From a candidate division WWE3 bacterium (GTDB lineage: Bacteria; Patescibacteriota; WWE3; 2-01-FULL-39-13), in assembly GCA_943354835.1 (NCBI GenBank), contig CALRDH010000001.1, positions 46,460 through 110,459 of the forward strand: a stretch of DNA of 64,000 nt, read 5' to 3'. Positions 5,269 to 50,730 of this stretch are shown here, one piece after another (the first letter of the stretch is position 1; each line of letters begins with the position of its first letter). The notes below the pieces were generated by a model that saw nothing but the letters and a program-made list of their open reading frames with translations, had not been told where the DNA came from and ran no database searches. Both the position numbers and the translations under genes were made by a program.

Positions 5269-5978
5269 AAATATTCATTCAAAATATCTAAAAATACTTT
5301 TGGTTTTTCGATATGTGGACTGTGATTTGCGCCCCAAACAATTCTTACAGTTGAATTTGGGATTTGCTTCTTGAAAACCTTTGTCTGACTTACATCTAAA
5401 ACGCTGTCTTTATCTCCCCATGTAATTATAGTTGGCGTTTTTATTTTATTAAAAAGAAATGTTAAGTCTTGATTAACAACTTTTACAAATGTTTCTTTTA
5501 ATTTACCGGATGATTTATAGTCTGCACTTCCTAGTTTCATTTTTATTTTTTCAGGAATAAATTTCTTAATTGGATTTAAGAGTGAATTAGCTAAACGAAC
5601 ATATAAAGATTTATTTTCAATTCCTGCACTGTCGACCAAAACAAGTTTATTTATACCTTTTATTTTACTAGCAAGAATTATTCCTAACCTTCCACCAAAT
5701 GAATGACCAATCAGTGAATATTTATTTATATCAAGTTTTTTTAAAAAGTTTTCGACAAAATCTGCATATTCATATGTATCATATGGTCTCTCTGGTAATT
5801 GTGTTCCACCAAATCCAGGAAGGTCCAATAAAATAACTCTATATCGAGTCGAAAGATTTTGCGCCACAGGAACCCATTCGTTTAAGGATCTACCCCATCC
5901 ATGAAGAATTATTAAAACATTATCTCCATGACCGAACTCTTCATAATTTGTAAGTATTCTATCTACTACAATCTGCAT
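5265..5978 (-). CDS. alpha/beta-fold hydrolase
   Basis: HGWG oxyanion motif and GHSFGG nucleophile elbow. Overlaps murF by 4 bp, so likely translationally coupled. Confidence 0.6.
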   Translation of the reverse strand: MQIVVDRILTNYEEFGHGDNVLIILHGWGRSLNEWVPVAQNLSTRYRVILLDLPGFGGTQLPERPYDTYEYADFVENFLKKLDINKYSLIGHSFGGRLGIILASKIKGINKLVLVDSAGIENKSLYVRLANSLLNPIKKFIPEKIKMKLGSADYKSSGKLKETFVKVVNQDLTFLFNKIKTPTIITWGDKDSVLDVSQTKVFKKQIPNSTVRIVWGANHSPHIEKPKVFLDILNEYL

Positions 5979-5987
5979 ATCTAAATT

Positions 5988-6404
5988 TCAACTATCTACT
6001 ACCTTCAACCATTTTATTTTTTTAAAGTCGCTATCGAATGTTGCGATTTTTTTGATACCTAACTTTTTACAATAGTATGCATGATATGCATCGAATGTTT
6101 TAAGATTGTATTTTTTGGCCAAGCCAAGGATATCAATCACGTCGGTTGAGACCAATTCTAAATCAATCAATGCTATCCGTTTCATTTTCAAAATATCTTT
6201 ACAAAGCCTGAGTGCGACCTCTTGACCATCTTTCCTTAAGAAAAAGTAGTGTAACTCATTTAGTATATACGGAGTAATAATCCCGATTTCATTTCTATTA
6301 CTGAATTCATGAACTAAATTACAAGCCTGTTCATAAAACTCGGCGTTACTTTTGAGCATGTTTATAAAGATATTTGAATCTACAAATATCCTGCTTTCAT
6401 TCAT
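5988..6404 (-). CDS. vapC: PIN-domain ribonuclease toxin (VapC-like)
   Basis: N-terminal IFVDSNIFI motif with an acidic residue, and PIN-domain size. Overlaps the upstream small antitoxin-like ORF by 8 bp. Confidence 0.65.
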   Translation of the reverse strand: MNESRIFVDSNIFINMLKSNAEFYEQACNLVHEFSNRNEIGIITPYILNELHYFFLRKDGQEVALRLCKDILKMKRIALIDLELVSTDVIDILGLAKKYNLKTFDAYHAYYCKKLGIKKIATFDSDFKKIKWLKVVDS

Positions 6405-8150: not shown

Positions 8151-9414
8151 TTAAAAACATTCCAAAACTTGCAGTTCCCGGAGAAAGCAAAACAATACCA
8201 TTTTTATTTTTTGCGATATTAAAAGCACAAGAAATAGCTACTTCAAAATTATCGTAAACCTTATTTGAATCAAGACCCAAACTAATATAAATATCAGTTG
8301 CCGTGCCTTTTAAAAGGACGTAATCGACTTTAGTTTCTAGTACATAATTAACCAAGCCAGAATAATCTAACTTTTTATCTGCTCCTCCTAAAATCACAAC
8401 TGGGTTTCTGTCTAAATAAGTTTTAATGCCAGAGATGGCGGCGACCGGAGCGGTCGCCGCTGTATCATTAACAAACAAAACACCTTTAATTTCACTAAGC
8501 TCTTCCCCCCTATAAGGAACTCCTTTAAAATTCAAAATCGCATCTTTAGTTTTTTGCAAATCTAAATTCAAAGCTTTTGAAATCTCAAAACATAACGCCA
8601 TATTTCTAACGTTATGCTCGCCTTTTAGAATTGAGCCAGAAAAATCATATCCTCCGCTTATCACATCAATCAAAATATTTTTTGATTTAGAAATCTGCAA
8701 ATAATCATTTGTAAACTCACCATCCTTAATAGTTACAAAAAAATCTTCAGATTTTTGATATTTAAATATTGAGGCCTTTGACATTGCATAATCTTTATAC
8801 GACGCATATCTATTCAAATGATCATGTGAAATATTTGTAATAACTCCAACATGTGGAGAAACTTGATTCTCATCTAAGCCTTCACAATCCCAGCTTGAAA
8901 CTTCCAAAACAACCCAATCATCTTCATTAACTTTTGAAACTAAATCCATTGCCGAATTTCCAGGAGTTCCAGCCTGGTAAACATTTAGACCTTGCGATCT
9001 AATAATTTCCGTTAATAAAGTTGATGTTGTAGTTTTTCCTTTTGTTCCAGTTACACCGATAACATTTTTTGTTTTGGAATACTTCAAAAAGAAACCTTCA
9101 GACATTTGAATTTCAATATTATGATCTTTTATGAACTTGAAAAGTGGAACCTCTCTTGGAATTGCAGGAGATCTAAAAACAATGTCTGCATTTAAAAAAT
9201 CAGATTCTTTGTGCTCACCTAAAACATATTCAATATTAGGAAGATCTTTAATCTCGTCTAAAGATTCTTTTAAATCGGATTCGGTTTTTAAATCTGTCAC
9301 TAAAATTTTTGCGCCATTTTGCGAAAAGAACTTAACTGCAGCTGGTCCATTTCCATGAGTTCCAAAACCCCAAATAACTATTTTTTTATCTTTAAATTCA
9401 GGAAAAATATTCAT
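8089..9414 (-). CDS. murD: UDP-MurNAc-L-alanine--D-glutamate ligase
   Basis: Rossmann-like N-terminus (KIVIWGFGTHG) and Mur ligase P-loop GVTGTKGKTTT. Position in the mur cluster. Confidence 0.8.
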   Translation of the reverse strand: MNIFPEFKDKKIVIWGFGTHGNGPAAVKFFSQNGAKILVTDLKTESDLKESLDEIKDLPNIEYVLGEHKESDFLNADIVFRSPAIPREVPLFKFIKDHNIEIQMSEGFFLKYSKTKNVIGVTGTKGKTTTSTLLTEIIRSQGLNVYQAGTPGNSAMDLVSKVNEDDWVVLEVSSWDCEGLDENQVSPHVGVITNISHDHLNRYASYKDYAMSKASIFKYQKSEDFFVTIKDGEFTNDYLQISKSKNILIDVISGGYDFSGSILKGEHNVRNMALCFEISKALNLDLQKTKDAILNFKGVPYRGEELSEIKGVLFVNDTAATAPVAAISGIKTYLDRNPVVILGGADKKLDYSGLVNYVLETKVDYVLLKGTATDIYISLGLDSNKVYDNFEVAISCAFNIAKNKNGIVLLSPGTASFGMFLNEFDRGDKFKDFFEKLKNEN

Positions 9415-9417
9415 AGA

Positions 9418-10767
9418 TCACAAAGCCTCCAATAAATTTTTTACAATTAAATCTCCATGACCGACAGCAAGAACCAAAACCAGATCTCCTTCGTTAGATT
9501 TCTCAACCGCTAATTTTACGGCATCGTCTAGTGAATTACACAAAACGGAACTAACAGTCCCAGACTTTGTTACATTAAAAAAATCTTCGTTCGAAATTGG
9601 ATATGGAAGATTTTCTCTAGATGCATAAATTGGACATTGAATTAAATCAACACCATTAAAAACTCCGCTGAATTCATTTAAAAGTTCCGCACATCTTTTG
9701 TATTGATGAGGTTCATATATAACGATCACATTTTTTCCTGTTGAAATTGCTGCATCAACAGTCACCTTAATTTCAGTTGGATGGTGACCGTAGTCATTTA
9801 CAACTGTAATTCCATTTTTAATTGAGGATTGAAACCGGCGGCCCGTCCCTTTAAATAAGTTTAATTTTAAGATTGCATCATTGATATCAAAACCCATAAT
9901 CATACAAACAACCAGGGCCGCCGTAGCATTGAATGCGTATTGCTTTCCCGGAAACGGAATTTTTGCATTATAAACATTTTCTCCGATATTAATTTTCCAT
10001 GACGACTCAAATCCATTTATCTCAATTCCACTTATCACTACATCATTTGATTTATCTTCTCCATATGTCATGAAATTTCCAGCAAAATTAGTTTTGATTT
10101 TCTCAACTGGAGTCTGATCTCCCCACATTAAAACATGACCACCCGACTTCACATTTGAAACAAATTTACAAAAAGAATTAATGTACGAATCATAATCTTT
10201 GAAATAATCATGATGATCCATTTCCAATGATGTAATAACAGCGATTTTTGGTTCAAGGCCTAAAAATGCATCAGCAAATTCATCAGCCTCAATCACGAAA
10301 TTTTTTGACATTCCATTTCTCCCGTTTGTTTCAAAATTGATTGAAGTTCCACCAATTCCAAATCCGCATTTATCACCTAAAGAATCTAGCAAAAAAGAAG
10401 TTAATGAAGTTGTTGTCGTTTTTCCATGTGTTCCAGAAATCGCAATAACATCTTTATCATTTAATAATATTGGCAAAAATTCATTTCTCTCATAACTTTT
10501 AACTCCAACATTTATGGCTTCATCAAGTTCCTTTTTATTTTCCTCGTTATATTTAATTGCAGAAGTGTATAAAAACGCATCCAAATTGGATTTAATATGA
10601 GAAGGTGAATTTCCTAAATCAAGATCTTTAAGGCCTAATTCAAATAATTCTTTAACTCGTTCATTTTCATCTAAGTTACAACCAGAAACATCCCAACCCT
10701 TTTCAAGCAAAATTTTTGCAATCCACGACCAACCTTCTCCTCCAATTCCTGCAATATGAACTTTCAT
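9418..10767 (-). CDS. murC: UDP-N-acetylmuramate--L-alanine ligase
   Basis: N-terminal HIAGIGGEGWS (the MurC GIGG motif) and Mur ligase P-loop GTHGKTTTTS. Confidence 0.8.
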   Translation of the reverse strand: MKVHIAGIGGEGWSWIAKILLEKGWDVSGCNLDENERVKELFELGLKDLDLGNSPSHIKSNLDAFLYTSAIKYNEENKKELDEAINVGVKSYERNEFLPILLNDKDVIAISGTHGKTTTTSLTSFLLDSLGDKCGFGIGGTSINFETNGRNGMSKNFVIEADEFADAFLGLEPKIAVITSLEMDHHDYFKDYDSYINSFCKFVSNVKSGGHVLMWGDQTPVEKIKTNFAGNFMTYGEDKSNDVVISGIEINGFESSWKINIGENVYNAKIPFPGKQYAFNATAALVVCMIMGFDINDAILKLNLFKGTGRRFQSSIKNGITVVNDYGHHPTEIKVTVDAAISTGKNVIVIYEPHQYKRCAELLNEFSGVFNGVDLIQCPIYASRENLPYPISNEDFFNVTKSGTVSSVLCNSLDDAVKLAVEKSNEGDLVLVLAVGHGDLIVKNLLEAL

Positions 10768-28365: not shown

Positions 28366-31300
28366 CTACGCTCGGCTAGCAGTTTTTGCCTTTTTATAAT
28401 ATAAAGAAAATCCAATTACAAAGATAAACACAATAAATACCAAATACCCTAAAAACTGTAAGTATTGTGGCCAGAAGATGATCACATAACTAGCAGAGAC
28501 CCCAGGAACAATCCAAGAATTTGCCCAGTTTTTTGCTAAAACATGACTTGCGGTAGATTTTTTACACGTAAATGGAGTTGTCATTCCTAACAAACATGAA
28601 TCTTTTTCATATAATCCCCAACCATTTTCAAATGATTGATTTAAAATAATAAGTCCGCCTTCTTTTACATCGGCTTTCTCTGATTTCTCAACTTTAACTT
28701 CATATTTATAAATAGCCTTTTTATCGACATTCAAAAGCTTCACACCATTTTCATAAAATTCTGGTGCATTTTTCGGCTTTACATAAATCCCTTTAAGCCA
28801 CTTATATGGGAAATATTTAACATCAACTCCATAAAGCTCATTTTCAGTTGGAGCATTGCCTATAGACTGATTGCCTATGTTGATTCCAACACTTTCGGCA
28901 GATGGATATGAAGGTAGAATAAAAGATTCCCTCCCATTTCCATTTAGTCTTTCTTGAATTAAGCATTTATCAAGATCAATTCCAGCAATACAAATATCTA
29001 AATTCTTACCAATTATATTTTTAGAATCAAATGTAATTAAATAGTCGGAATTTGCGTTTATAACTGTTGTTTCCAGGTTATCACAACTTATTGCATCAAT
29101 TGCTGAATATTTATATAAAGGCCGGTCGTCAAAAAGGCCTAAATCACGAGCAAATTTCTTTTCGTTAAAATTATCACAATTTTTTGCCTCAATATTATAT
29201 CCAAAATCACCAGGAATATATAACTTACTAAGGTTTCTATATTCTGGCAATATAACTTTAAGGGGCAGTTGCTCTTTTGTAACAATTATCTTTTGACTAC
29301 TTGAATAAGCCAACTCCGATGGTGAAAATATTTTAATCTGGGTTAATGGATACCTATAAACTTTTATATCCTTAAATGTTACTTCCTCTGATTTTGTACT
29401 ATTAAATTGATCAGAAATTAAGCTAAACCGCAATTTATCTTGACCTTTGGCAATTACATAATCAATAGATTTTTTAAATTGACCATCGATACTTATAGTT
29501 CCATTATATTTCTCATTCAAACACTTCTTTTCATTTTCGCTGTATAGGCAATAAGTCTGTTTTGAATCAGAAACATTTTTATATAAATAACTTATCTCAT
29601 AAACAAAATCAGTCGTATTCTCAATTCTTTCATCAAAATCCAAACAAACTGAACCGCCATCGCTTGAAACGATTACGCTTCCTGGATATTTATCATATGA
29701 CTTAGCAACGTTTTCGAGCGAACCAGAACAATTATTTACCTCACTACTGTATATTTGGTCACTAAAATCGTAAAAATCCGACGAAAATGAATCATAAGAA
29801 ACAATTGTAGAATTAGGTTTTATTAAAAACGAACTTCCAGTTTCTGTTAATTTAACGGGTTTATTATTAAATAATATCTTTTTGGATGGATCTAAAATGA
29901 CATCGATTACCTCATTAAATTGATTTTCATAAATATCATTATTCTTTGAATCAACAATCTTTGGCCTTAAATAAGAAACCTCAATATTATCGGAATTAAA
30001 AGATACCAAAGCAGGAAGAGGACTATTAAAATCAAAACCTGGAGCGACAACGGAATAAATATCATTCGAAGCGAAAGACGGATAATCAATTAAATAATCT
30101 TCCAGACTAGCCAAAACACGATCATCTGAAAATGGGAAATGCAAGGGCTTTTTGTCGTTTATCGAATCAACTAAAATATAATTAGAAAACCCGGATAAAT
30201 AAATAGGATCGAGATTAGAAAAATTATACCTTGTCAAAATATTGCTCGACTCTTTGGGAGTATATACATACGATATTGAAGGTTCCTTATGATCTACTTT
30301 ATATATAAATATGAAATCTCCAAACTTTGTGTCAAGTGAAATCCGATTAGAACGGGATAATAGTTCTTTGGTTGCCTCATAGAATAAAGCGCGTTTGGCA
30401 TCTGGTGTAATAACACTTTCATCTATTAAGAGATAATCAATTTGATATTTATTCAAAACAGAATCAAATAAATCAATATTTTGTGAATAAATCGCGTATT
30501 GAAGTTCGTTATAGAACTGCTCATTTTTATAATTCCACCCATCAAAAGCCCTATCTGTTATAGCTTGCTCAATACCGTACCACATAAATCCGCTACCCCT
30601 ATATCCCCAATTATGAAATCTCCACCCCCAAAAAGTGTGTTGCGGCAAATTTACAATTCGTTTTGAAATATCTTGTGATTTAAAATAAGCAAATAATTGT
30701 TTATATTCATTCGGCAATTCGATTTTTAAATTTTCGTATATGAAATTTCCACGGAATATAGGATATGATTGTAATAATATAGCCGAAATAATAATTGCCG
30801 CCAATACGTAACTATTATTTTTAAACTTTTCAAAAGTTTTTGCAAAAAAGACAAACCCAAATCCAAGAAAAATACTGTAGGTTAATGAAGCAGGGACAAT
30901 CCACTTTGTAAAAGCAAATCTAAAAACTTCTCCAAAAACTGGAAATTTATCTACTATAAAGCTATATAGAAATCCTGTCGGCCAAGCAGTACCAATCAAA
31001 AAGAATAACGACAAAAAAAACATACACAAAAGGCCCAAAATAAACAAACGTCGATGAGAAAAGGTTGCAAATATAACTCCAATAATTATTATAAGAAATA
31101 GAAAGTATCCAATAAATGCGATAAAGTTGTAACTAATCCAACCTATCCAAGGCTGTAACATGTATTCAAATTGCCCCTCATTATTTGGATAATAGTCGAT
31201 GTACGAAAACCAAAAACCACGCAATTTTGATACATCGGAAATATTTCCATATCTGTTGTTGTATTGGTATGCGTTTTCACTACTAATACGATTGATTATG

Positions 31301-32103
31301 GAATCAAATCTAGAATCTACTCCACCGCTAAATAAATAATAACCAAAAGGAGCTAACCAGTATAAATTTATAAAAAAGAACACCATCCAGAAAACGACTT
31401 GTCTTTTTATGAGTATAAAATTCTTCGTAATCAGGGACTTAATAAAAATACCTAGATTCAAAGGCAGAAAAAGCAAACAAAACACAAAAAATAATGTAGG
31501 GATAAAAAAAGCTGTTGTTATTGCAAGTAAAGCTGTAAGCATTAACCCATTTTTGAATCCAAATCCTTTATATACATATAAATAAAAAATTAATATTGAT
31601 AGCGGTAAAAAAGCATAAAAAGCAGAAAAAGCTTCAAGTGGGGAATAAAAATTCTGAACCGTACCAAGATTTAGCATGTAAAACAAAGCGACAATAAAAG
31701 ACACTAACGAACTATGTTTATATTTCTCAAAAATAGCCAATTTAGATAAAAAATATGTTGAATACACGCCAATTGCGAGCAGTATAAATTGGAAAACATA
31801 TCTGTATAGCCACTGCGGAAGCAGTAATAATGGAGAAAATAAGATAATTCGAACAACTTCTGTAGAATGCCCATGACCTGCAACCAAACCCAAACCCTGA
31901 TATTCTTCCCATACAGAACTAAAATTTCGAGTAAGATTTAATATTGGATCAAACTCAACTTGCTGATTATCCCAACCCAAAAGATATGTATTAGGTCTTA
32001 TATTGCTAATTGCCAGAAAAACTAACACTAAAAATAGTATTAGGACAGGATTAAAAATACGTTTTATTCTTGTTTTCATTGAATTCAAAGCCATATTTGC
32101 CAT
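28366..32103 (-). CDS. large polytopic membrane protein with a big extracytoplasmic domain (GT-C/YfhO/PTPS-related-like)
   Basis: 1245 aa. About 14 N-terminal transmembrane helices, then a ~750-aa soluble region and a C-terminal transmembrane helix. Last gene of a glycosyltransferase operon. Family assignment is tentative. Confidence 0.55.
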   Translation of the reverse strand: MANMALNSMKTRIKRIFNPVLILFLVLVFLAISNIRPNTYLLGWDNQQVEFDPILNLTRNFSSVWEEYQGLGLVAGHGHSTEVVRIILFSPLLLLPQWLYRYVFQFILLAIGVYSTYFLSKLAIFEKYKHSSLVSFIVALFYMLNLGTVQNFYSPLEAFSAFYAFLPLSILIFYLYVYKGFGFKNGLMLTALLAITTAFFIPTLFFVFCLLFLPLNLGIFIKSLITKNFILIKRQVVFWMVFFFINLYWLAPFGYYLFSGGVDSRFDSIINRISSENAYQYNNRYGNISDVSKLRGFWFSYIDYYPNNEGQFEYMLQPWIGWISYNFIAFIGYFLFLIIIIGVIFATFSHRRLFILGLLCMFFLSLFFLIGTAWPTGFLYSFIVDKFPVFGEVFRFAFTKWIVPASLTYSIFLGFGFVFFAKTFEKFKNNSYVLAAIIISAILLQSYPIFRGNFIYENLKIELPNEYKQLFAYFKSQDISKRIVNLPQHTFWGWRFHNWGYRGSGFMWYGIEQAITDRAFDGWNYKNEQFYNELQYAIYSQNIDLFDSVLNKYQIDYLLIDESVITPDAKRALFYEATKELLSRSNRISLDTKFGDFIFIYKVDHKEPSISYVYTPKESSNILTRYNFSNLDPIYLSGFSNYILVDSINDKKPLHFPFSDDRVLASLEDYLIDYPSFASNDIYSVVAPGFDFNSPLPALVSFNSDNIEVSYLRPKIVDSKNNDIYENQFNEVIDVILDPSKKILFNNKPVKLTETGSSFLIKPNSTIVSYDSFSSDFYDFSDQIYSSEVNNCSGSLENVAKSYDKYPGSVIVSSDGGSVCLDFDERIENTTDFVYEISYLYKNVSDSKQTYCLYSENEKKCLNEKYNGTISIDGQFKKSIDYVIAKGQDKLRFSLISDQFNSTKSEEVTFKDIKVYRYPLTQIKIFSPSELAYSSSQKIIVTKEQLPLKVILPEYRNLSKLYIPGDFGYNIEAKNCDNFNEKKFARDLGLFDDRPLYKYSAIDAISCDNLETTVINANSDYLITFDSKNIIGKNLDICIAGIDLDKCLIQERLNGNGRESFILPSYPSAESVGINIGNQSIGNAPTENELYGVDVKYFPYKWLKGIYVKPKNAPEFYENGVKLLNVDKKAIYKYEVKVEKSEKADVKEGGLIILNQSFENGWGLYEKDSCLLGMTTPFTCKKSTASHVLAKNWANSWIVPGVSASYVIIFWPQYLQFLGYLVFIVFIFVIGFSLYYKKAKTASRA

Positions 32104-36212: not shown

Positions 36213-37280
36213 CTACTGATTTTTGAACACCAATGGCAAGTTTGTCCTGTAAAGACATTCTTGCTCCTCACCGCCGCCTTCGTACACGTAGCACACGTAA
36301 ATCGGTGTTGGCGTCGGGGTTACCGTCGCTGTTGCCGTCGGCGTGCTGGTTGGTGTCGACGTGCTCGTCGGTGTCGGCGTCGAACTCGGAGTACTGCTGG
36401 GTGTCGCACTCGGCGTCGGGGTAGCCACTGGCTCCTCAACATTCCAAATGGACGATCCACCCGCTGCGATAGTCGCACTTCGCGCCTCTGCCCATGTCGG
36501 CCAAGTCTTTCCATCCACTGCAGGGGAACCTGTTGTAAGGTACCAACCCCCTGGCGTGCACGGATCTGACATCGGCAATCTATTGGCTTCGGCCAAACTA
36601 CTTGTCACCCACGGGGATGACCCATCACAGAACCCACTCGGTGCCGCATCGAACATTGCTGTCGCGGTCGGGGTCGCTGTGGACGTGCTCGTCGGAGTAC
36701 TGCTTGGTGTCGCGGTTGGCGTGTTCGTCGCTGTGCTGGTCGGGACCGGCGTACTCGTTGACGTATTCGTCGCTGTGCTAGTCGGAACCGGCGTACTCGT
36801 TGACGTGTTCGTCGCTGTGCTAGTCGGAACCGGCGTACTCGTTGACGTATTCGTCGCTGTGCTGGTCGGGACCGGCGTACTTGTTGACGTATTCGTCGCT
36901 GTGCTAGTCGGAACCGGCGTACTCGTTGACGTGTTCGTCTCTGGGGTGGCTGTTGCCTCCCAGTGAATGCGCCATATCGACGATCCGCCTGCACTCACAG
37001 TTGCGTTTCTCGCTCCAGTCCATTCCGGCCACCTAACTCCGTTAAGGGTACCCACTCCTATTGTGAGGAATGGCCCTCCGGCTGGTGAACACGGGTCTTG
37101 AACGGGGAGCGCATCTGCCTCTTGCTGCGTACTCGAAACCCAAGGGGCCGATCCTGCACAGAATTGTGCGAGATTCGGCGATCCGGCGGTAACGATACGT
37201 GCAACGTAAGGCGAAAGCGTACTTCCTACGATGATTGCAAACGCAATCAAAGCCCTCAAAAACTTACTAATCTGAAACAT
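36213..37280 (-). CDS. secreted protein with two homologous ~70-aa Cys-containing domains joined by a Thr/Pro-rich tandem-repeat linker
   Basis: Signal peptide (MFQISKFLRALIAFAIIVGS) with AAGGAG 7 nt upstream of the ATG at 37280; the ORF track extends to a GTG at 37310. Domains: CAGSAPWVSSTQQEADALPVQDPCSPAGG...ARNATVSAGGSSIW and CDGSSPWVTSSLAEANRLPMSDPCTPGG...ARSATIAAGGSSIW. The linker is TNTSTSTPVPTSTA five times. GC3-rich codons. Confidence 0.6.
   Translation of the reverse strand: MFQISKFLRALIAFAIIVGSTLSPYVARIVTAGSPNLAQFCAGSAPWVSSTQQEADALPVQDPCSPAGGPFLTIGVGTLNGVRWPEWTGARNATVSAGGSSIWRIHWEATATPETNTSTSTPVPTSTATNTSTSTPVPTSTATNTSTSTPVPTSTATNTSTSTPVPTSTATNTSTSTPVPTSTATNTPTATPSSTPTSTSTATPTATAMFDAAPSGFCDGSSPWVTSSLAEANRLPMSDPCTPGGWYLTTGSPAVDGKTWPTWAEARSATIAAGGSSIWNVEEPVATPTPSATPSSTPSSTPTPTSTSTPTSTPTATATVTPTPTPIYVCYVYEGGGEEQECLYRTNLPLVFKNQ
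36716..36940. repeat. 42-bp tandem repeat (~5.3 copies) encoding the TNTSTSTPVPTSTA linker
   Basis: Direct reading shows GTTGACGT(A/G)TTCGTCGCTGTGCT(A/G)GTCGG(A/G)ACCGGCGTACT(C/T) repeated head-to-tail. Confidence 0.75.
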
Positions 37281-37612
37281 TCTGATTTTCTCCTTACTAC
37301 GAAAAAACACGGGTAGAGGTACTTCAACAACTAACTTATCCCGAGTTTTTTTCCGGATAATTTAGTTGCTGAAGTGTCTATCTTTTGTTTTTCTGTTCTT
37401 TGAAGATTGAATGTCTCTACATTGTCTCTATCTAACTTAGTTTGTAATATAACGCCTTGCACTTGCGTGCGCGGCTACTATTACTCACTTCGTTTGTAAT
37501 ATAGTGCCTCGTATGAGCATAAAGATTCCTAAAGATCCAGTCAGAATTTGATTGGCCTTTATTCGTCTAACTCATACTATTTAAAAGAACTACGCCTTTC
37601 GGCGTTTCCGAT

Positions 37613-37660: not shown

Positions 37661-38078
37661 GCCCTTCGGAAAACCCTTCAATCGTTTTTGCTACTTATTA
37701 GGTTTTATTTAATGATCGATATCCTGTGAGGTTAACTTAATGGTTGCGGCCTGACAGGACCTTTCACTTAAAAAGCTATCAGTCGCTACAACTTGTGTTT
37801 GTAGCGTACTGCAGTATTAATACTGTAGGCTATTCAAGTGAAGGCTAATATTACTATAGGGCAATCAAGATGTCAAAGGCATGTACAGGCCGGGTACATG
37901 GGTAACACTTTTGAAAAACTATTGTACGAGTTTATCACCTTCTGTACATATTCTACTGGCGTGTCCTGTCCATGGCTCTCATGTGGCTTTTATGTATTGT
38001 ATTCATAGATTCCAAACTTGAAACTGCGGGTGTAAGCCCGTGGAGATTCATATAAAAGAATAATCGTCTACCTCTTTC

Positions 38079-41933: not shown

Positions 41934-42746
41934 AATTTTCCTTAATCCACTTACTCAAACTCTTAGAATCAAATAATTCGGCATACTCTACAACATCTTT
42001 TTTATTCACTTTCTCTAGGTTTAATCTGTCGTTAAATGCAATCCTGCCCAATGAAACAAAATATAGATAATCAGCAACAGCTTTCTCTGGTTTAGCCATA
42101 TAATAGTTATCCATTTTGGTATATCCCGTAAAAGCTTTTGTTTTAACACTCCTGTATAAATATGACATATTATTTACATCAAACTCATTTGTGGTTTTAG
42201 TTGTCACACATGTAATTGAATAAACAACTTCAGGAATAAGCCCATATACAGAAAGGGCTGATTCTAAGGATATATACGAAGGTTTAATCAGATATGCCGA
42301 AATCGAATACGTACTCGGAATAAAGTCCTTTGAATAATAAAGTCCGTTCTTAATTTTTATAAAAAATCCATAAATTGCTCTTACTTTGAAATTCGTTAAA
42401 CGTGTTGTATCTCATTGGGGAAAGTATACAAAAGTGTATACTTTCCCCAATGAGAATACGAGTCATGAAAGTTATCGCACCAGTCTTTGTTAAATTGCTT
42501 TATGCTTTGATTTAAAGTGTTATCACTTTCAGGAACCAACATCTTTAATGTGTTTTTCATAAAGTATGGAAGGCTTTTTAGTTTTAAAATATCTGCGCTT
42601 TTCATTTTAGTAATGGTACTAAATACATGCCAATTCCAAAACGCGTCGAACAAATTGTCAAACACATGAAACTCCACGGGCTTAGGCCATAGTTTCATAC
42701 AGGGCATAAATTCTGGTATTTTTTGGATCCATATTAGTAACGGCAC
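41896..42746 (-). pseudogene. abiEi: AbiEi-like antitoxin gene split by a 44-bp palindromic insertion or frameshift
   Basis: The 103-aa ORF (AKPEKAVADYLYF) continues upstream in-frame without a start codon (...IKIKNGLYYSKD...SYISLESALSVYGLIPEVV) to a TGA at 42414-42416. The 116-aa ORF 42396-42746 is in the other frame. Deleting 42411-42454 joins them into one ~267-aa AbiEi-like ORF with wHTH TTRLTNFKVRAIYGFFIKIKNGLYY. Confidence 0.5.
42411..42454. repeat. perfect 19-bp inverted repeat with a 6-bp spacer (44 bp)
   Basis: CTCATTGGGGAAAGTATAC aaaagt GTATACTTTCCCCAATGAG. There are no mismatches in the arms. Confidence 0.85.
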
Positions 42747-42755
42747 TAAAAATCT

Positions 42756-43568
42756 TTATTGATATTCGGGTTCTACAACTTCGTATCTGAATCCAGGGTT
42801 TTGGATTCCTCCTGGGACTATCTGCGTAAGCACTGAATTTGGGACATACATAACAAGCGTATCGACCAACATACCCTCTGATGCGGGAATTATTACTATC
42901 GGAACAGCAATTGGAGCTGAATGACTACCGTCAGGACTCGTCATTTGAGGGAAATTCCCTAGCTCTGTTACACGAACACCACTACCACCAAGTCCATTCA
43001 TATGTGTTATATATTTGCTCAAAGGTGTTCTATCAGAAATAAAAGCTTGAGTATGCGATCCAGTATCTTCAATTCTTTGTACCCATAAACCAAAACCTCT
43101 ATCCTGAAAATTTTCGGTAACTCCTGGCACATTTTTAGGTTTGGGATTGATACCTTCTGGTGTGAAAGACATTTTCCATGCAGATCCGTCTGGATTATCT
43201 TGGTGTTTTGCTGGTGGTAATGGTATAAACATAAATAGATCACCAGATGGAAATTGTTCAGATGAAACGAAATCTTCACCGTACGCAACAGAATAAGCAT
43301 GCCTAACAACAGTTGAAACGCTGTCATAAACACCCGCGTAATTTTCGGCAACATACGCATTCGCATCCTTAAACGCTGGTTCAGGGCGATATCCTTGCTT
43401 TTCAGGGTTAGAAACAGACGGAACACAGGCAGCAACTAAAGCTGCTGCCGCGGCAACTCCTGCAGAACCTGCCAAAAATTGTCGTCTAGTCATACCACCC
43501 GAACCATCCGTACTACCCTGCCCAAAAGGTTCTTCTGTTGGATTTATTGTCATTAATTGATTACTCAT
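42756..43568 (-). CDS. Tat-signal lipoprotein, hypothetical
   Basis: Twin-arginine motif TRRQFLAGSAGVAAAAALVAAC with a lipobox-like VAAC. 270 aa. Intermediate GC. Confidence 0.45.
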   Translation of the reverse strand: MSNQLMTINPTEEPFGQGSTDGSGGMTRRQFLAGSAGVAAAAALVAACVPSVSNPEKQGYRPEPAFKDANAYVAENYAGVYDSVSTVVRHAYSVAYGEDFVSSEQFPSGDLFMFIPLPPAKHQDNPDGSAWKMSFTPEGINPKPKNVPGVTENFQDRGFGLWVQRIEDTGSHTQAFISDRTPLSKYITHMNGLGGSGVRVTELGNFPQMTSPDGSHSAPIAVPIVIIPASEGMLVDTLVMYVPNSVLTQIVPGGIQNPGFRYEVVEPEYQ

Positions 43569-43593
43569 AACGAAAAAATGATATCATAAAAAT

Positions 43594-46500
43594 ATGCCTG
43601 TCACATCAATTACTGGGCTTACGCCAGAAAATCAAGCTGAACCTTCGCCAATCGAAATAGCAATTCAAGCAATGGATTCAATAGATTTCGATCAACAATT
43701 GCCATTTGAAGCACGCACTGGATTAACAAGCACTTCACGAAAAGCATATGATCTGCCCCCAGAAAAGGCCGCTGAAATAGTAGCCTATGAAGCAGAACAA
43801 AACAAGGGATATGCCATCGATCAAACCTCACCACCGAGAACTTTTTTCCAAACCCCTACAGAAATTATAGAATACACTGGCACTGATATCGACCAATCTA
43901 GGTTAGCAACGGTAACAGCGATTTATTACGCCACAAGTGCCAGAGAAGGCTTAAATGAAACTGAAGCAACAGCCCAAGCTGGTAAAAAAGAAAACCAAGG
44001 GGCAGGCAGTCATAATTTTGGCCTGAAATTTCTTGCTAATTTAGTAATAACTATTGGTAAGGCTCGATTAAAAATCCTATCGAGATACAACCATCCAAGA
44101 CAAGGACCTGTTGTTTGGGCCGGTGAATACAAGCAAAAAGAAGCTCATAGTGGCATAGGACATCAACTAGCTCTTGATTATCTGAAAGAACAAGATGGAA
44201 AGGGTGATTTACCGCATATAGCATATTCAACATTAATGAAAATAGAAAATCCACCAACAGAATTAGTGCAAGCAGCAGCAAACATGCATAAACGTTACAT
44301 ATTATCTGATCCACATTACCAACATGCCAAATTAGTACAGCCGGCAGAAAACACTTTAGTAAATATAACGGAATTCGATTATAGCCATGCTCACTATGAA
44401 CTACTACCAAGGGGCATACATGCACTCGAAGCCAGTGTAGACAGAAACGGATTATACAAAGCTGCTGCGGTTGACTGGCTAGCTCTTGAAGACCGTGAAA
44501 TTAGATTTCTTTTGCCTTTGGCAATAAGACCATCACCAGAATCAACATACTCGCCGACAAGAAGCCTAGACAGCGGATCCATGTTAAATGGTGAATACAC
44601 AAGATACGCAATCGAAGATCAAATGGAGAAAGGTAATATCCCTTTATTACAACAAATTGTTTTGCGAATGCGCGAGAGTGGATTATATACAGATTTAATC
44701 GTAGGAATAGACGATAAATGGGACAAACGACTAGTTAACTTACCAATCGAATTACGTACTAGAAGTTATAAGACTTCGCCTTGGACAAGGGAAACAAAAA
44801 ACTTTTTTGACGAATTTATAAGTCATGATATGGATGTAATTGCGATGGGTAGCCTATCAGAATACGCCCGTTTATGTGATCTATACAATAGATTAAGCCC
44901 TCAAGTAAGGGTCAAACTTAAAAATTACAAGTTAGCTTTAGTCGGAGATGATTTAAAAGCACAAATGTGCCTTTCTGGCGCAATAACCATCGACACACTC
45001 GAACGCCGCATTGACGACATGGCTGAAATTCAAAGCTGGAAACACGATGAAACCTTTAATCAAGTGCCATTTAATCTTCCATTATTATTACAAGACGTAG
45101 CTAAAGATCCAGGCTTAAAAATAAGCTTTAGTGGATCAACGATAAGTGTTTCACAATCAGGTTATCACCCAATTCGATTAGATCCTCATCGTCAGTTGAT
45201 GCATGGCGATTTGTTCACTTTAGTAGAACAAACTGCTCAAAACGCTCTGTTACGGGACCTCATTAAATTCATATTATGGGCTGAAGCAAAGCGCAATACA
45301 AGAACGATGGCAATCGCAAGAGTATCGATGTCTCAAGGCAAAACCAAACTTGAGTCAAGTTATCGACCGATAAAAGGTACCAATCAAATCCCAATATTAA
45401 GCCATACAGAACAGATCAAAAACAGAAGAAACATTGCGTACCCGCAAATAATGGTAAGAATAGATGGATTAAGCGATGAAACCTTTGAAGAAGTTAGTAG
45501 ATTGTATGAAGATTTCCGTGCGGCCATTTTGAAAGAAAAAGAGATAAAAAAAGAAAATTTAGACAGAAATCTAAAACTCAAAGTTGCGGAACTATGGCGA
45601 AGGAAAAAAGAAAACAGACAAAAATTAACCCGTGACAAAAAGATTCGAATGGAACAAAGTGTGGCGCAAAGCCCTGAAGAAAGAGTGTCTACAGAAACAC
45701 TTAATGTTTGGCAAGCAAGGGCTTCATCAGCAATCCATCATCTAACTTGGATATTATCAACATCTATACTGGCCGGCTCACACGGAAGAAGCCGAGAGGC
45801 GCCAAAACAGCCGAGCAGGCGAGACCTGTTTAGATCAGCCTTTTCAAGTATCGAGTTGAATAACGACAAGGCAAGACCATTGGTGGCTGGGAGGCTTGAT
45901 GATAATGCGGCAAGCAACTCACCAATATCATTTGGAAGTGCTCTGTTACCTGGTCGATCAGAATCACTCGAAAACGCCACGGTTCCCGACCCTATCGAGC
46001 TAAAAGCGTCTCATCCAGGTGTCTTAAAATCCGGCTATTATCTCAATCGTTTATATCATAAAATGCCGGTTGATCCATATCACTTTATAGATCCTCCAGC
46101 CGAAATGACACGTATACAAATAAGAAACGGAAAACCAGAAAGCGAACATCACATTGCAGTTGTATATGATTCAAAAGCAGATGAAGTGACAATACCATTA
46201 AAGCTTGGCGCCACTGTGAATTCTTATACTGGTCCATCCGCGGAGTTCTTTGTTGACACAAACTCACAAACATTAAAAGCAAAAATACTTGGGGATAAAA
46301 GCAAACCCTTAAAGGCTTATATTACTGAAAAAGGAGATTCTAGCGATGTCTATTCACCATGGGCAAATATAGCTAATATGCCAGTAACAGAAGATGATGT
46401 CGCTCCTCTCATTGACATAAGCTTATTATCAAACGAAAATGACCGTCTTGCATTGCAAGCAATAAGAGACTTAGATGCACATACAGATATAAAAATAGCA

Positions 46501-47319
46501 ATGATAACGAAATTTTGGGAGCTCAAGTACGCATACTCTAAATTCACACCACCAGACATGACTTACGAAACATTAGTCACAATGGCCGAAGGCCCATGTG
46601 GGCTATCTGCAATTGGACTCGTTGCCTGCTTACGCGCTGTCGGAATCCCCGCAATTTATGCGAGTGGATTCCTAAACGACAAAGACAACGAACTGACAGA
46701 CAAAGAATTGCATGGTTTTGTATACGTCCATGATGGTTCTATATGGCGCGCGATCGAACCACAAAACGGAAGATTCACTCAAGAAGAAATTCAGACTGCC
46801 GAGATAATAAATCGTGGTGCGCCAACATTTGCGATATCAAATTCAGCAGGACAGCTTACACAAGTAAAACTTGGTGGAAACCCACTAACACTTCGCGATG
46901 CTTCAGGGGTACTTACATCTGCTGAAAACACAGCAAATCCAGCTATCATGGCTACACTTGAAACCGTCCTTAACGTTCCACAAAATGGCGAGACTATGGC
47001 AAATACTAAGGGCAATTCCGTAACTCAGCGTTTACAAACGCCACAAGAAAAGCAATTAGCAAGCAATCAACCTGAAGAGGAGAACCTGAGCGATGCGTCA
47101 CTAACATTACCAACAACCACAGATGGCAACAATGTTATTACAACTATCCTTTCTGAAAATAAAAAAACGGCGACTTATGCGGGTGGAGTACTTCTGGCCG
47201 CAGCTGGAGTAGGCGGAGTACTTAAAGGCATACAAATTGCTACACGGCGTGCATACGCAAGAGGATTTGATGAAGCATATGATGAGGTACTTCATGCAAT
47301 CCAGGATACATTGCTATAA
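43594..47319 (+). CDS. giant hypothetical protein (1241 aa) with a C-terminal transglutaminase-like cysteine peptidase core
   Basis: GPCGLSAIGLVACLRAVGIPAIYASGF...HGFVYVHDGSIWRAIEP fits the Cys/His/Asp transglutaminase-like superfamily signature. No N-terminal signal peptide. A hydrophobic segment lies near the C-terminus (YAGGVLLAAAGVGGVL). Confidence 0.55.
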   Translation: MPVTSITGLTPENQAEPSPIEIAIQAMDSIDFDQQLPFEARTGLTSTSRKAYDLPPEKAAEIVAYEAEQNKGYAIDQTSPPRTFFQTPTEIIEYTGTDIDQSRLATVTAIYYATSAREGLNETEATAQAGKKENQGAGSHNFGLKFLANLVITIGKARLKILSRYNHPRQGPVVWAGEYKQKEAHSGIGHQLALDYLKEQDGKGDLPHIAYSTLMKIENPPTELVQAAANMHKRYILSDPHYQHAKLVQPAENTLVNITEFDYSHAHYELLPRGIHALEASVDRNGLYKAAAVDWLALEDREIRFLLPLAIRPSPESTYSPTRSLDSGSMLNGEYTRYAIEDQMEKGNIPLLQQIVLRMRESGLYTDLIVGIDDKWDKRLVNLPIELRTRSYKTSPWTRETKNFFDEFISHDMDVIAMGSLSEYARLCDLYNRLSPQVRVKLKNYKLALVGDDLKAQMCLSGAITIDTLERRIDDMAEIQSWKHDETFNQVPFNLPLLLQDVAKDPGLKISFSGSTISVSQSGYHPIRLDPHRQLMHGDLFTLVEQTAQNALLRDLIKFILWAEAKRNTRTMAIARVSMSQGKTKLESSYRPIKGTNQIPILSHTEQIKNRRNIAYPQIMVRIDGLSDETFEEVSRLYEDFRAAILKEKEIKKENLDRNLKLKVAELWRRKKENRQKLTRDKKIRMEQSVAQSPEERVSTETLNVWQARASSAIHHLTWILSTSILAGSHGRSREAPKQPSRRDLFRSAFSSIELNNDKARPLVAGRLDDNAASNSPISFGSALLPGRSESLENATVPDPIELKASHPGVLKSGYYLNRLYHKMPVDPYHFIDPPAEMTRIQIRNGKPESEHHIAVVYDSKADEVTIPLKLGATVNSYTGPSAEFFVDTNSQTLKAKILGDKSKPLKAYITEKGDSSDVYSPWANIANMPVTEDDVAPLIDISLLSNENDRLALQAIRDLDAHTDIKIAMITKFWELKYAYSKFTPPDMTYETLVTMAEGPCGLSAIGLVACLRAVGIPAIYASGFLNDKDNELTDKELHGFVYVHDGSIWRAIEPQNGRFTQEEIQTAEIINRGAPTFAISNSAGQLTQVKLGGNPLTLRDASGVLTSAENTANPAIMATLETVLNVPQNGETMANTKGNSVTQRLQTPQEKQLASNQPEEENLSDASLTLPTTTDGNNVITTILSENKKTATYAGGVLLAAAGVGGVLKGIQIATRRAYARGFDEAYDEVLHAIQDTLL

Positions 47320-49212: not shown

Positions 49213-50730
49213 TTAATTACTTATTGGAAAACTTAAAATATCAGAAAGAACATCCGAAATAGTCTCGGAAATTGGAGTTGAGACGATGTCTGAAATAATC
49301 TCCGAGATTGGATTACTTATAACATCGCTGGTTGGAGTCGATGTTATGCCAGAAATTGGATTGCTGATGACATTAGAAATTCCGTCCGAAATTATTTCTG
49401 AGATTGGGTTACTCACGATGTTGCTAATTCCATCGCTAATTGGAGTTGATGTAATTTGTGATATTGGATTGCTGATAACATTTGAAATTCCATCCGAGAT
49501 AATCTCCGAAATCGGGTTACTAACGATGTTGCTGATTCCATCACTAATTGGATTTGAGGTTATTTGTGATATTGGACTTGAAACGATGTCCGAGAGAATC
49601 TCCGAAATTGGGTTACTAATTACATTCGAAATCCCATCCGAGATGATTTCCGAAATCGGGTTGCTTACGATATTGCTTATTCCATCGCTGATTGGATTTG
49701 AAGTTATATCAGATATTGGACTCGAGATGATGTCCGAGATTATCTCTGAAATTGGATTACTTACGATATTTGAGATTCCATCAGAGATGATTTCTGAAAT
49801 TGGATTACTTAGGATGTTACTAATTCTATCACTGATTGGGCTTGATGTTATGCCGGATATTGGGCTTGAGACGATGTCAGAAATTATTTCTGAGATTGGG
49901 TTACTTACAATATTACTGATTCCATCGCTGATTGGACTTGAGACAATGTCTGAAATTATCTCCGATAATGGATGACTTACGATATTACTAATTCCATTAC
50001 TTAACGGAGTACTTAAAATTACAGATGTCGGATTTGATAGTGGATCTGAAATTATTGGAGAAATAATATCTCCCTGTACTTCAACAAAAAACAAATGTTT
50101 TGATGTTTTTGAAGACTGATTTGCCTTGTCTATTGCTTGAACTTGCACTTCATAAATTCCAAGTGCTGGCCTTACTAAAATAAAAGTGTGAACAGGCTTT
50201 TCAATCACTTCAGAAACCATCGACCCATTAATAAAAAGTCTTGTGTACTTCAAATCATTATCAATTACACGAACAGAAATATTTACATTTTGCCCAAATT
50301 TATACCTTGCCGCAATAAATGACGTATCAGTAAACAAAATAATTGGAGGTGTATTTATTCCGGAAGAATCATCGTTATCGTCGTCGTCATCATCGTCGTC
50401 GGAATCTTCATCGTTATTATCATCATTATTATTGCTTGTATTTTGAATAGTTGAACTTTTTGCGTTTCTTCTACCTGAAGAAAGTACTAGATTCTCAACC
50501 TTTTTAATAACCTCATCAATTTTGCTATCGGACAAAACACTTCCTAAATTTGACTCTACATCATTCGTGACATAATCATCACCATTAATTTTATTAATAA
50601 AATATCCAATTGAAAGTCCAAGAGAAACCCCTGCAATAGAGGTCAAAAGCCAATAAATCCACTTACTCTGTAATTTTAATAACAAGCTTATAATTTTATT
50701 CACGAAAATGTTTATGGACAGAACATTCAA
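49213..50730 (-). CDS. membrane-anchored repeat protein: poly-acidic stretch, Ig-like segment, and a long C-terminal (x-x-I-S)n tetrapeptide-periodic array
   Basis: N-terminal transmembrane helix, NDDNNDEDSDDDDDDDDNDD, then about 280 aa of NPIS/EIIS/DGIS/NIVS units with a 12-nt period. Confidence 0.5.
   Translation of the reverse strand: MNVLSINIFVNKIISLLLKLQSKWIYWLLTSIAGVSLGLSIGYFINKINGDDYVTNDVESNLGSVLSDSKIDEVIKKVENLVLSSGRRNAKSSTIQNTSNNNDDNNDEDSDDDDDDDDNDDSSGINTPPIILFTDTSFIAARYKFGQNVNISVRVIDNDLKYTRLFINGSMVSEVIEKPVHTFILVRPALGIYEVQVQAIDKANQSSKTSKHLFFVEVQGDIISPIISDPLSNPTSVILSTPLSNGISNIVSHPLSEIISDIVSSPISDGISNIVSNPISEIISDIVSSPISGITSSPISDRISNILSNPISEIISDGISNIVSNPISEIISDIISSPISDITSNPISDGISNIVSNPISEIISDGISNVISNPISEILSDIVSSPISQITSNPISDGISNIVSNPISEIISDGISNVISNPISQITSTPISDGISNIVSNPISEIISDGISNVISNPISGITSTPTSDVISNPISEIISDIVSTPISETISDVLSDILSFPISN
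49216..50050. repeat. 12-nt-periodic degenerate tandem repeat array within the coding sequence
   Basis: Units such as ATTGGATTACTTACGATATT / ATCTCCGAAATTGG recur throughout. This produces a long antisense ORF artefact (49286-49975). Confidence 0.6.

Follow-up and report, generated by a model that had tools for sequence, protein, structure and literature searches.

A divergent gene pair in a candidate division WWE3 genome

We examined a 64,000-nucleotide stretch of DNA (hereafter the window) from a candidate division WWE3 bacterium (contig CALRDH010000001.1, positions 46,460 to 110,459), in which the gene for a giant protein of 1241 amino acids is paired with the gene for a lipoprotein carrying a twin-arginine translocation (Tat) signal. 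The giant is encoded by an open reading frame (ORF) with an ATG start (43594-47319, + strand), and its 270-residue partner by an ORF on the opposite strand (42756-43568, − strand) that is recognized by the Pfam TAT_signal and TIGR01409 profiles. A preliminary description of this DNA had reported two divergent ORFs 25 bp apart, and we confirmed both. The spacer between the start codons (43569-43593) leaves no room for two promoters if both annotated starts hold, and a promoter scan of it found no more sites than in shuffled sequence. The giant protein is encoded identically on three public assemblies, the longest of these sequences being a contig of 429,718 bp. The window is ordinary chromosome, encoding an MraY-type transferase, Alr, Ddl, four Mur ligases, MurB and MurA as well as SecF, RecJ, RuvX and an S11 carboxypeptidase, and Rfam and tRNA scans of it gave no match.

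The two-gene module is richer in GC than its flanks, as had been suspected (0.409 versus 0.333 in the rest of the window), and the profile is not uniform, with a rise at 42.8 kb and a fall at 47.3-47.6 kb, at the gene borders. Measured against the 39 other ORFs of the window (mean total GC 0.331, standard deviation 0.025; mean third-position GC, or GC3, 0.244, standard deviation 0.032), total GC is 0.407 for the giant (z 3.0) and 0.423 for the partner (z 3.7), with GC3 values of 0.300 (z 1.7) and 0.251 (z 0.2). Since GC3 is near the window norm, the excess of both genes lies in codon positions 1 and 2, and it follows an increase in Ala, Pro, Arg, Thr and Gln and a decrease in Phe, Ile, Lys and Asn. 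The elevation is genuine, but it is an effect of amino-acid composition and, with GC3 values near those of native genes, not evidence of foreign origin or recent transfer.

With either the giant or the partner as query, a word-indexed search of 5.8 billion proteins retrieved only the query itself. An exhaustive HMMER search of 1.84 billion cluster representatives with the giant returned 20 proteins including the query: ten full-length relatives (1014-1619 residues), two fragments and seven proteins of 250-561 residues matched over the transglutaminase region only. Nine of the full-length relatives align to the query over two separate stretches and P0016, the tenth, over a single one. All relatives come from metagenomes or metagenome-assembled genomes, under the public names ‘transglutaminase domain-containing protein’ (from ‘Patescibacteria group bacterium’ or an unclassified ‘bacterium’) or ‘hypothetical protein’, Patescibacteria being the only taxonomically informative source name among them. 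The family has thus been seen so far in metagenome assemblies only, with labels that point to the Patescibacteria, or candidate phyla radiation (CPR). The giant had no match in PADLOC, PHROGs, or phage or plasmid collections, nor in a sequence search of the PDB; the partner had none in PADLOC or PHROGs; and a scan of a species genome collection with the giant found no close relative.

A transglutaminase-like domain with a conserved Cys-His-Glu triad

The transglutaminase-like domain that had been recognized in the C-terminal region of the giant is genuine. Pfam Transglut_core (PF01841) matches residues 971-1055 with 27.8 bits (cut-off 23), and 12 of 13 family members are matched by the same profile, the best with an E-value of 2.9e-18. 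From the Pfam match, Foldseek and the triad columns, we place the core at residues 920-1064 (46351-46785, + strand), preceded by a beta-sandwich domain at residues 809-915 (46018-46338, + strand) that is modelled entirely as strands, mostly with block means of 73-91 in the AlphaFold confidence measure, the predicted local distance difference test (pLDDT). In an alignment of 18 sequences, Cys1002, Arg1014, Gly1025, His1040 and Trp1051 are invariant. The third position of the triad is Glu1055, in the motif AIEPQ, and Glu occupies this column in all 11 giants and in P0017, the column being Asp in classical small transglutaminase-like proteins. The triad is therefore Cys-His-Glu. As every giant has the Glu, its substitution for Asp is characteristic of the family and does not point to decay. 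Of the Cys-His-Asp core originally proposed, the Cys and His therefore stand, and the Asp gives way to a conserved Glu (codons 46597-46599, 46711-46713 and 46756-46758, all + strand). The loss of catalytic positions that would have spoken for a degenerate fold is not seen: Cys and His are kept throughout, and the acidic third residue is retained as Glu.

An AlphaFold model of residues 700-1241 is confident over residues 809-1064 (block-mean pLDDT mostly 71-97), where it shows the beta-sandwich followed by the core, and disordered over residues 729-808 and 1065-1193, so that the modelled enzyme domain is flanked by tethers of ~80 and ~130 residues. The best solved structure matched by sandwich and core together in Foldseek is the periplasmic domain of TgpA (E-value 7e-8), followed by the Cytophaga putative cysteine protease 3isr (1e-5), with TglA, Rad4/XPC and animal transglutaminases, including factor XIII, among the lower matches. 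The predicted fold of the core is that of a papain-like transglutaminase, and by analogy we infer transamidase, deamidase or peptidase chemistry for the domain.

Predicted membrane helices on both sides of the enzyme domain

The N-terminus of the giant is not hydrophobic, and a hydropathy scan found no segment above 1.32 in residues 1-700; neither a hydrophobic nor any other recognizable N-terminal signal is present, in agreement with the reported absence of a Sec signal. The hydrophobic stretch noted earlier near the C-terminus corresponds to residues 1194-1216 (TYAGGVLLAAAGVGGVLKGIQIA; 47173-47241, + strand; hydropathy 1.73) and is followed by the basic tail TRRAYARG. This helix 2 recurs in most full-length relatives, although in P0003 and P0010 it does not reach the scan threshold and in P0016 it is weak. 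A candidate helix 1 at residues 712-729 (SAIHHLTWILSTSILAGS; 45727-45780, + strand) is weak in the window protein, whereas relatives have a clear helix at the corresponding position, with hydropathy values of 2.08 in P0007, 1.74 in P0003, 1.56 in P0004, 1.55 in P0009 and 1.31 in P0010; it is weak in P0005 and P0006, and P0013 and P0015 lack it. In P0016, neither position has a clear membrane helix. In P0004 and P0007, helix 1 comes after basic residues and helix 2 before them, a charge pattern that predicts an N-terminus inside, an enzyme unit outside and a C-terminus inside. The enzyme unit is accordingly predicted to lie outside the membrane between flanking helices that are clear in most relatives, which makes the cell-surface location once suggested for it plausible.

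Two motifs near helix 1 were also observed. In P0010 (locus L009), helix 1 is preceded in mid-protein by a Tat-like MDRRKFLK (residues ~628-650), and the giant of the window has PSRRDLF at residues 740-746, just past its weak helix 1.

A predicted GHL-type module in the N-terminal region

The first ~1000 residues had been described as having no assignable motif, but domain parsing with structure models found there a module resembling the GHL branch of the GHKL superfamily, a stalk and the beta-sandwich described above. Family alignments contain a conserved block at residues ~40-390 with the motifs Y-E-x-x-Q-N, P-P-P, G-I-T, L-G-x-x-G-R-G-L-K, T-x-I-x-I-x-N-P-P, F-L-Y-x-N-P-x-Y, F-V-D-G-L, P-W-x-I and R-x-x-D-S, and E66, G138, G143 and R323/D326/S327 are strongly conserved across the family. 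In an AlphaFold model of residues 1-730 built from an alignment of 11 sequences, mean pLDDT is 62, with block means of ~66-90 over most of residues 55-235. The structures matched by this N-terminal model are the topoisomerase II ATPase (scores 10.9 and 10.6), SMCHD1 (10.5), Topo VI-B (10.5), ParE (10.3), TRAP1 (9.8), MORC2 (9.5), MutL (9.5) and MORC3 (9.3), aligned over 204-309 residues, whereas histidine kinases score only ~5-6. Independently, Foldseek ranks Topo VI-B and Hsp90/Grp94 first, at a weaker level (best E-value 2e-3).

The conserved motifs fall at the positions expected of a Bergerat fold in the model: E66xxxN70 lies on the first helix, followed by a strand and a glycine loop at G119, a disordered lid at residues 129-141, G138xxxxG143-L-K at a helix N-terminus and then the S/T213-x-[IV]-x-[IV] strand, which belongs to the motif S-T213-x4-N-P-P; the invariant D294 and R323/D326/S327 fall in the transducer-like part. 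Residues 55-335 (43756-44598, + strand) are thus, as a structural prediction, a Bergerat ATP-binding fold with transducer, that is, a GHKL/GHL-type ATPase-like module. In motif I (ExxxN), the Glu is present in 10 of 10 members covering the site and the Asn in 7 of 10. The site of motif II reads T-S-A-R-E-G-L in the window protein and N-x-G-x-G-[LM] in one subgroup. In motif III, with the consensus G-F-W-G-R-G-L-K, G138 and G143 are invariant and the window protein has Asn at the middle Gly. The module is followed by a middle region of mixed alpha/beta character (residues 336-627; 44599-45474, + strand) that is modelled mostly at pLDDT 35-65, is alignable across the family and has no Pfam match in any family member, and by a predicted helical, coiled-coil-like stalk rich in Lys, Arg and Glu (residues 628-727; 45475-45774, + strand) with modelled helices at 628-692 and 700-727. 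As a separate observation, part of the N-terminal domain occurs twice in P0007 (1619 residues; locus L013, 4392-9251), where residues 266-434, ahead of the complete copy, are matched by profile positions 170-323.

A Tat-signal partner adjoins the giant in six loci

The partner is matched by Pfam TAT_signal with 25.2 bits (cut-off 22.7) and by TIGR01409 with 22.1 bits (cut-off 16.7). Its signal and lipobox occupy residues 26-48 (MTRRQFLAGSAGVAAAAALVAAC; 43425-43493, − strand), where T-R-R-Q-F-L precedes an Ala/Gly-rich stretch and the lipobox V45-A46-A47-C48, and by these sequence criteria it is a predicted Tat-exported lipoprotein. A partner gene of 242-270 codons adjoins the giant in six loci verified from sequence (the window, L005, L007, L010, L011 and L013). 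It is divergent in four of them, with TRRQFL and the lipobox VAAC in the window, a degenerate TPRDAL and no lipobox in L007, NRRRWFK and no lipobox in L010, and SRREFLK and no lipobox in L011; it is convergent in L005 (SRRTFMK, lipobox LSGC) and downstream on the same strand as the giant in L013 (TRRQFM, lipobox IAGC). The twin-arginine motif is thus present in 5 of 6 partners and the lipobox Cys in 3 of 6. On the contig of P0009, the annotation also calls a divergent 241-residue gene at the partner position.

Five partners align with common motifs such as I-x-I-Q-R-K-x-D-T, and a hidden Markov model (HMM) built from these five retrieves the L013 copy, which was not in the build, with an E-value of 5e-7. 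The partner profile found only weak matches in the PDB, to the Tat signal peptides of NapA, hydrogenase, Rieske protein, FdnG and NosZ. With homologous partners in six loci, the pairing first noticed in the window is a conserved two-gene module and not coincidence. Directly after P0016, L015 encodes a 256-residue protein without signal peptide (9265-10035, + strand) that has the partner-like motif IVIQRAENT and only a weak match to the partner profile (hhalign E-value 1.7e-3, probability 15%). If this similarity is real, a giant without clear helices beside a neighbour without signal is suggestive of giant and partner sharing a compartment.

Fast divergence and local loss of the module

In the species collection, the genome nearest to the window belongs to a candidate division WWE3 assembly, in which RecJ lies at a contig end and shares 82% identity with the RecJ of the window. 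At L005/L006, where RecJ is 51% identical to that of the window, the giant-partner pair again lies near RuvX, S11 carboxypeptidase/tRNA_edit, a PIN pair and RecJ, in an order and orientation that differ from the window. The giants of the window and L005 are ~24% identical overall and 33% over the N-terminal domain. In L004, a closer relative with a Wzy_C 75% identical to that of the window, the site beside Wzy_C has no giant-partner pair; toxin-antitoxin pairs are found there instead, together with an unrelated 389-residue Tat-signal lipoprotein (SRRDFLRF...LLAAC; 3910-5079, + strand) between RelE/Phd-like and PIN pairs. The giant is therefore not a conserved core gene of its relatives. The presence of the module in the RecJ neighbourhood of a genome with a 51%-identical RecJ argues for long residence with fast divergence, and in our reading of the distribution the module has long been resident in the lineage, has diverged fast and has been lost or replaced locally in a variable region, where the window also carries AbiEi/AbiEii and two PDC-S01 (AAA_14 + DUF4143) candidate defence ATPases. 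Across loci, the neighbours of the giant tend to be envelope and division genes, namely Wzy_C (window and L013), S11 carboxypeptidase, glucosaminidase, VanY with sortase, FtsA-FtsZ and MurJ.

Two candidate relatives at these sites were rejected. The 389-residue lipoprotein of L004 has only a signal peptide in common with the partner family, and a 546-residue ORF upstream of the L005 giant, in which a degenerate transglutaminase motif was suspected, is not matched by the family HMM.

A possible two-compartment envelope protein and its alternatives

We propose that the giant is a membrane-anchored two-compartment protein, with an outward, envelope-acting enzyme and a cytoplasmic clamp module, and give this reading a probability of roughly 45%. 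The N-terminal ~700 residues would lie in the cytoplasm as a GHL-type (MutL/MORC/Topo VI-B/Hsp90-like) module with transducer, a middle region and a helical stalk. Membrane helix 1 would take the chain outside the cell, where the beta-sandwich and the Cys-His-Glu transglutaminase-like domain would be held between two flexible linkers, and helix 2 would bring it back through the membrane to end in the short basic tail. The outward domain may cleave, deamidate or cross-link an envelope component or surface protein, and the Tat-exported partner from the neighbouring gene may assist it or be its target. Movement of the stalk, driven by nucleotide or by dimerisation, could allow the cytoplasmic clamp-type module to gate the enzyme. 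In favour of this proposal are the conserved core with its match to the periplasmic domain of TgpA, the hydrophobic helices on either side of the enzyme region in most relatives, the recurrent gene pair and the envelope and division genes nearby.

Several observations weigh against this proposal. Helix 1 of the window protein has a hydropathy of ~1.0 (a hand estimate, the scan having found no peak) and is followed by basic residues, so its topology is less secure than that of the family; if helix 1 is not inserted, the whole giant would be cytoplasmic and tail-anchored. The assignment of the N-terminal module as an ATPase depends on a modest model (11 sequences, mean pLDDT 62), and ATP binding is doubtful: the Mg-binding Asn (N70) is Gly in P0010, P0013 and P0015, and the adenine-binding Asp of the G1 box (DxGxG, motif II) is conserved nowhere in the family. 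The module has no Pfam or NCBIfam match in the giant or in family members, a PDB profile search with the N-terminal domain gave only two unrelated matches at chance level (E-values ~0.35-0.38), and hhalign of this domain against Escherichia coli MutL, with a hand-entered MutL sequence, gave a probability of 0.1. Given the missing G1 Asp, the variable Asn70, the Asn in the G2 motif and this null alignment, the fold assignment is a structural prediction. As for the partner, none is visible at L012 or L014, and L009 ends at the stop codon of the giant, so that its downstream side is off the contig. The motif scan of the window found no TatA-like ORF, and no TatC was present among the window ORFs scanned with Pfam, a scan that covered part of the ORFs; among the ORFs scanned in these 64 kb of genome, there was neither TatA/TatC nor Lgt/LspA. 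A survey reports Tat in some CPR classes, and WWE3 is not among the classes named (PMC9166423).

In a more ambitious form of the proposal, which we regard as tentative and less likely than not, the protein would represent a class of transmembrane machine not described before: a cytoplasmic GHL clamp ATPase would act mechanically, by way of a coiled-coil stalk and a membrane hairpin, on the outward Cys-His-Glu enzyme, which would work with its dedicated Tat partner. It is also possible, if rather doubtful, that the pair is a host-interaction factor, the outward enzyme and lipoprotein acting on the host of an episymbiotic CPR bacterium in attachment, surface-protein modification or feeding. Such a role would suit an enzyme domain predicted outside the cell on long flexible tethers, the very fast divergence of the giant (~24% identity versus 51% for RecJ in the same two genomes), its patchy presence, with a different Tat lipoprotein at the L004 site, and the Patescibacteria source name together with a WWE3 assembly as the nearest genome. 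However, no host-targeting domain, adhesin repeat or secretion-system gene was found nearby, the neighbours are envelope and division genes, and TgpA, the closest structure, is a housekeeping protein needed for viability. The secreted effector or toxin entertained in the preliminary description finds no support, since the giant has no secretion signal and appears to be anchored in the membrane at both ends of the enzyme region; its neighbourhood contains no secretion-system gene.

We consider it unlikely that the giant is a non-catalytic scaffold, in which a pseudo-ATPase would serve dimerisation and a transglutaminase-like binding module would anchor the lipoprotein to the envelope or surface. 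The absence of the G1-box Asp in all members and of the Asn in three, the replacement of the triad Asp by Glu, and the presence of Rad4/XPC, a non-catalytic transglutaminase fold, among the structural matches are what such a protein might show, but the invariance of Cys1002 and His1040 among sequences that share only 15-25% identity is difficult to account for in a non-catalytic protein, Glu would still be able to orient the His, and E66, G138, G143 and R323/D326/S327 remain strongly conserved.

Quite improbable, in our estimate, is a conflict or defence system in which a GHKL-type sensor fused to a peptidase effector in a defence island fires on phage infection. AbiEi/AbiEii and the two PDC-S01 candidate defence ATPases lie immediately upstream, the syntenic L004 region is rich in toxin-antitoxin pairs, and GHKL/MORC-type ATPases and transglutaminase-like peptidases are each known separately in conflict systems (PMC3710099, PMC7159879). 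Yet neither giant nor partner is matched in PADLOC or PHROGs, phage and plasmid collections gave no match, and other loci have the housekeeping neighbours FtsZ, RNR/NrdR, LepA, HrcA-GrpE and MurJ, while an extracytoplasmic effector domain with a Tat-exported partner does not fit intracellular abortive infection. A recently acquired foreign island, as GC elevation would imply, is barely credible: the GC steps at 42.8 kb and 47.3-47.6 kb, the total-GC z-scores of 3.0 and 3.7 and the variable flanking region are outweighed by GC3 values of 0.30 (giant) and 0.25 (partner) against a window mean of 0.244 (standard deviation 0.032), by the lack of a tRNA, integrase or convincing flanking direct repeat around the module, and by its place in the same RecJ neighbourhood of a distantly related genome.

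Should the transmembrane-machine reading be right, the cytoplasmic nucleotide state would control covalent chemistry on the CPR cell surface, and real coupling would mean that extracellular protein chemistry is driven or gated from within in a new manner, extending the GHKL superfamily to a branch invisible to sequence profiles. To our knowledge, almost nothing is known of how CPR bacteria build and remodel their surface and make contact with hosts. As CPR genomes are tiny, a 3.7-kb gene that deeply diverged lineages retain together with a dedicated partner is presumably important to these bacteria, and public annotation of these proteins goes no further than ‘transglutaminase domain-containing’.

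Other features of the window and related loci

Outside the module, a 365-residue ORF (36213-37310, − strand) is far more extreme in composition than the giant and its partner, with a GC content of 0.57 versus 0.33 for the genome. Its product starts with a hydrophobic anchor and contains two copies of a ~70-residue Cys-containing domain as well as TNTSTSTPVPTSTA, encoded by a 42-nt tandem repeat with five full copies; it has no Pfam match. A perfect 21-bp inverted repeat with a 4-nt loop (42410-42455; RNA folding energy −36.4 kcal/mol, z = −10.6 versus shuffles) lies ~300 nt downstream of the partner gene, within a doubtful 116-residue ORF (42396-42746), and may represent a terminator or what is left of a small mobile element. 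The block of the PDC-S01 pair and AbiEi/AbiEii is flanked by a 19-nt inverted repeat (38033-38051 and 42666-42684; 95% complementary), whose two arms could mark the borders of an inserted segment.

A 505-residue protein (49213-50730, − strand) has an Asp/Asn-rich stretch followed by a long series of near-identical repeats of the type SNPISEIISD(I/G)VS and no Pfam match, and is kept next to Wzy_C in L004. The window also has a second giant ORF of 1245 residues (28366-32103, − strand), without a Pfam match, after which come two further ORFs without a Pfam match and a glycosyltransferase; considered as a relative of the transglutaminase giant, it proved unrelated and was rejected. In L004, two inverted copies of a ~200-nt element (5797-6030 and 8478-8693) contain near-identical spurious ORFs (...LGTPGVLKKRLIFMEVVGLCILQRKGW...), and the element is a repeated non-coding one.

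Comparison with known systems

The closest known relative in structure, TgpA of Pseudomonas aeruginosa (PA2873; PDB 6g49/6g4h), is an inner-membrane protein whose periplasmic transglutaminase domain is active as a transglutaminase in vitro without depending on Ca; TgpA is important for viability and is co-transcribed with the upstream PA2875-PA2874 (PMC3507681). Like TgpA, the giant is predicted to have its enzyme domain outside the cytoplasmic membrane and between membrane helices. Unlike the giant, TgpA starts with a DUF3488 block of five membrane helices and has no GHKL module or coiled coil, and DUF3488 is not found in the giant, where PF01841 is the only Pfam match. The triad of TgpA has Asp in place of Glu, the two sequences are 13-14% identical, and no Tat-signal partner has been described for TgpA. 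We take the products of PA2875-PA2874 to be a MoxR-type ATPase and a DUF58 protein and, if so, a counterpart to the ATPase-like module fused in the giant; the giant is without such neighbours and has a Tat partner, the AbiE pair and Wzy_C. It offers a testable relative for TgpA, whose function remains unknown despite the need for it in Pseudomonas viability.

Small transglutaminase-like putative cysteine proteases, such as 3isr of Cytophaga hutchinsonii and the proteins of 250-300 residues retrieved with the family (P0011, P0014 and P0018-P0021), share with the giant the order of beta-sandwich and core and the Cys, His, Arg and Trp columns. They are soluble single units with the canonical motifs G-D-C-[ST]-E and D-P-Q, whereas the giants have G-P-C-G or G-I-C-N with E-P-Q and ~800 extra N-terminal residues. 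A lead towards a non-protein substrate, rather than a direct comparison, is WbmE of Bordetella bronchiseptica, cited in PMC3507681 as a periplasmic transglutaminase-like enzyme that modifies O-antigen; the giant adjoins a Wzy_C/O-antigen-ligase-like gene in the window and in L013.

With the GHL branch (MutL, MORC/SMCHD1, Topo VI-B/GyrB/ParE and Hsp90/TRAP1), the giant shares ExxxN on the first helix, a disordered lid before a glycine-rich motif at a helix N-terminus and a T-x-[IV]-x-[IV] strand, and in our own reading its FVDG motif recalls the YVNGR of MutL. It differs from this branch in having no detectable sequence-profile similarity to it and no G1-box Asp, and we know of no GHL protein joined by a membrane helix to an enzyme outside the cytoplasm. 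The predicted layout of the giant also recalls sensor histidine kinases, which link an outward domain between two membrane helices through a helical stalk to a cytoplasmic GHKL fold; in the giant, however, the order is reversed, with the GHKL module N-terminal, and no DHp or His-phosphotransfer helix was recognized. In the papers that full-text searches on GHKL or MORC proteins together with transglutaminases retrieved, the two occur only in separate systems. The enzyme unit is TgpA-like and known, and what is new is its fusion to a predicted GHL-type module invisible to sequence profiles, the Glu triad and the dedicated Tat partner.

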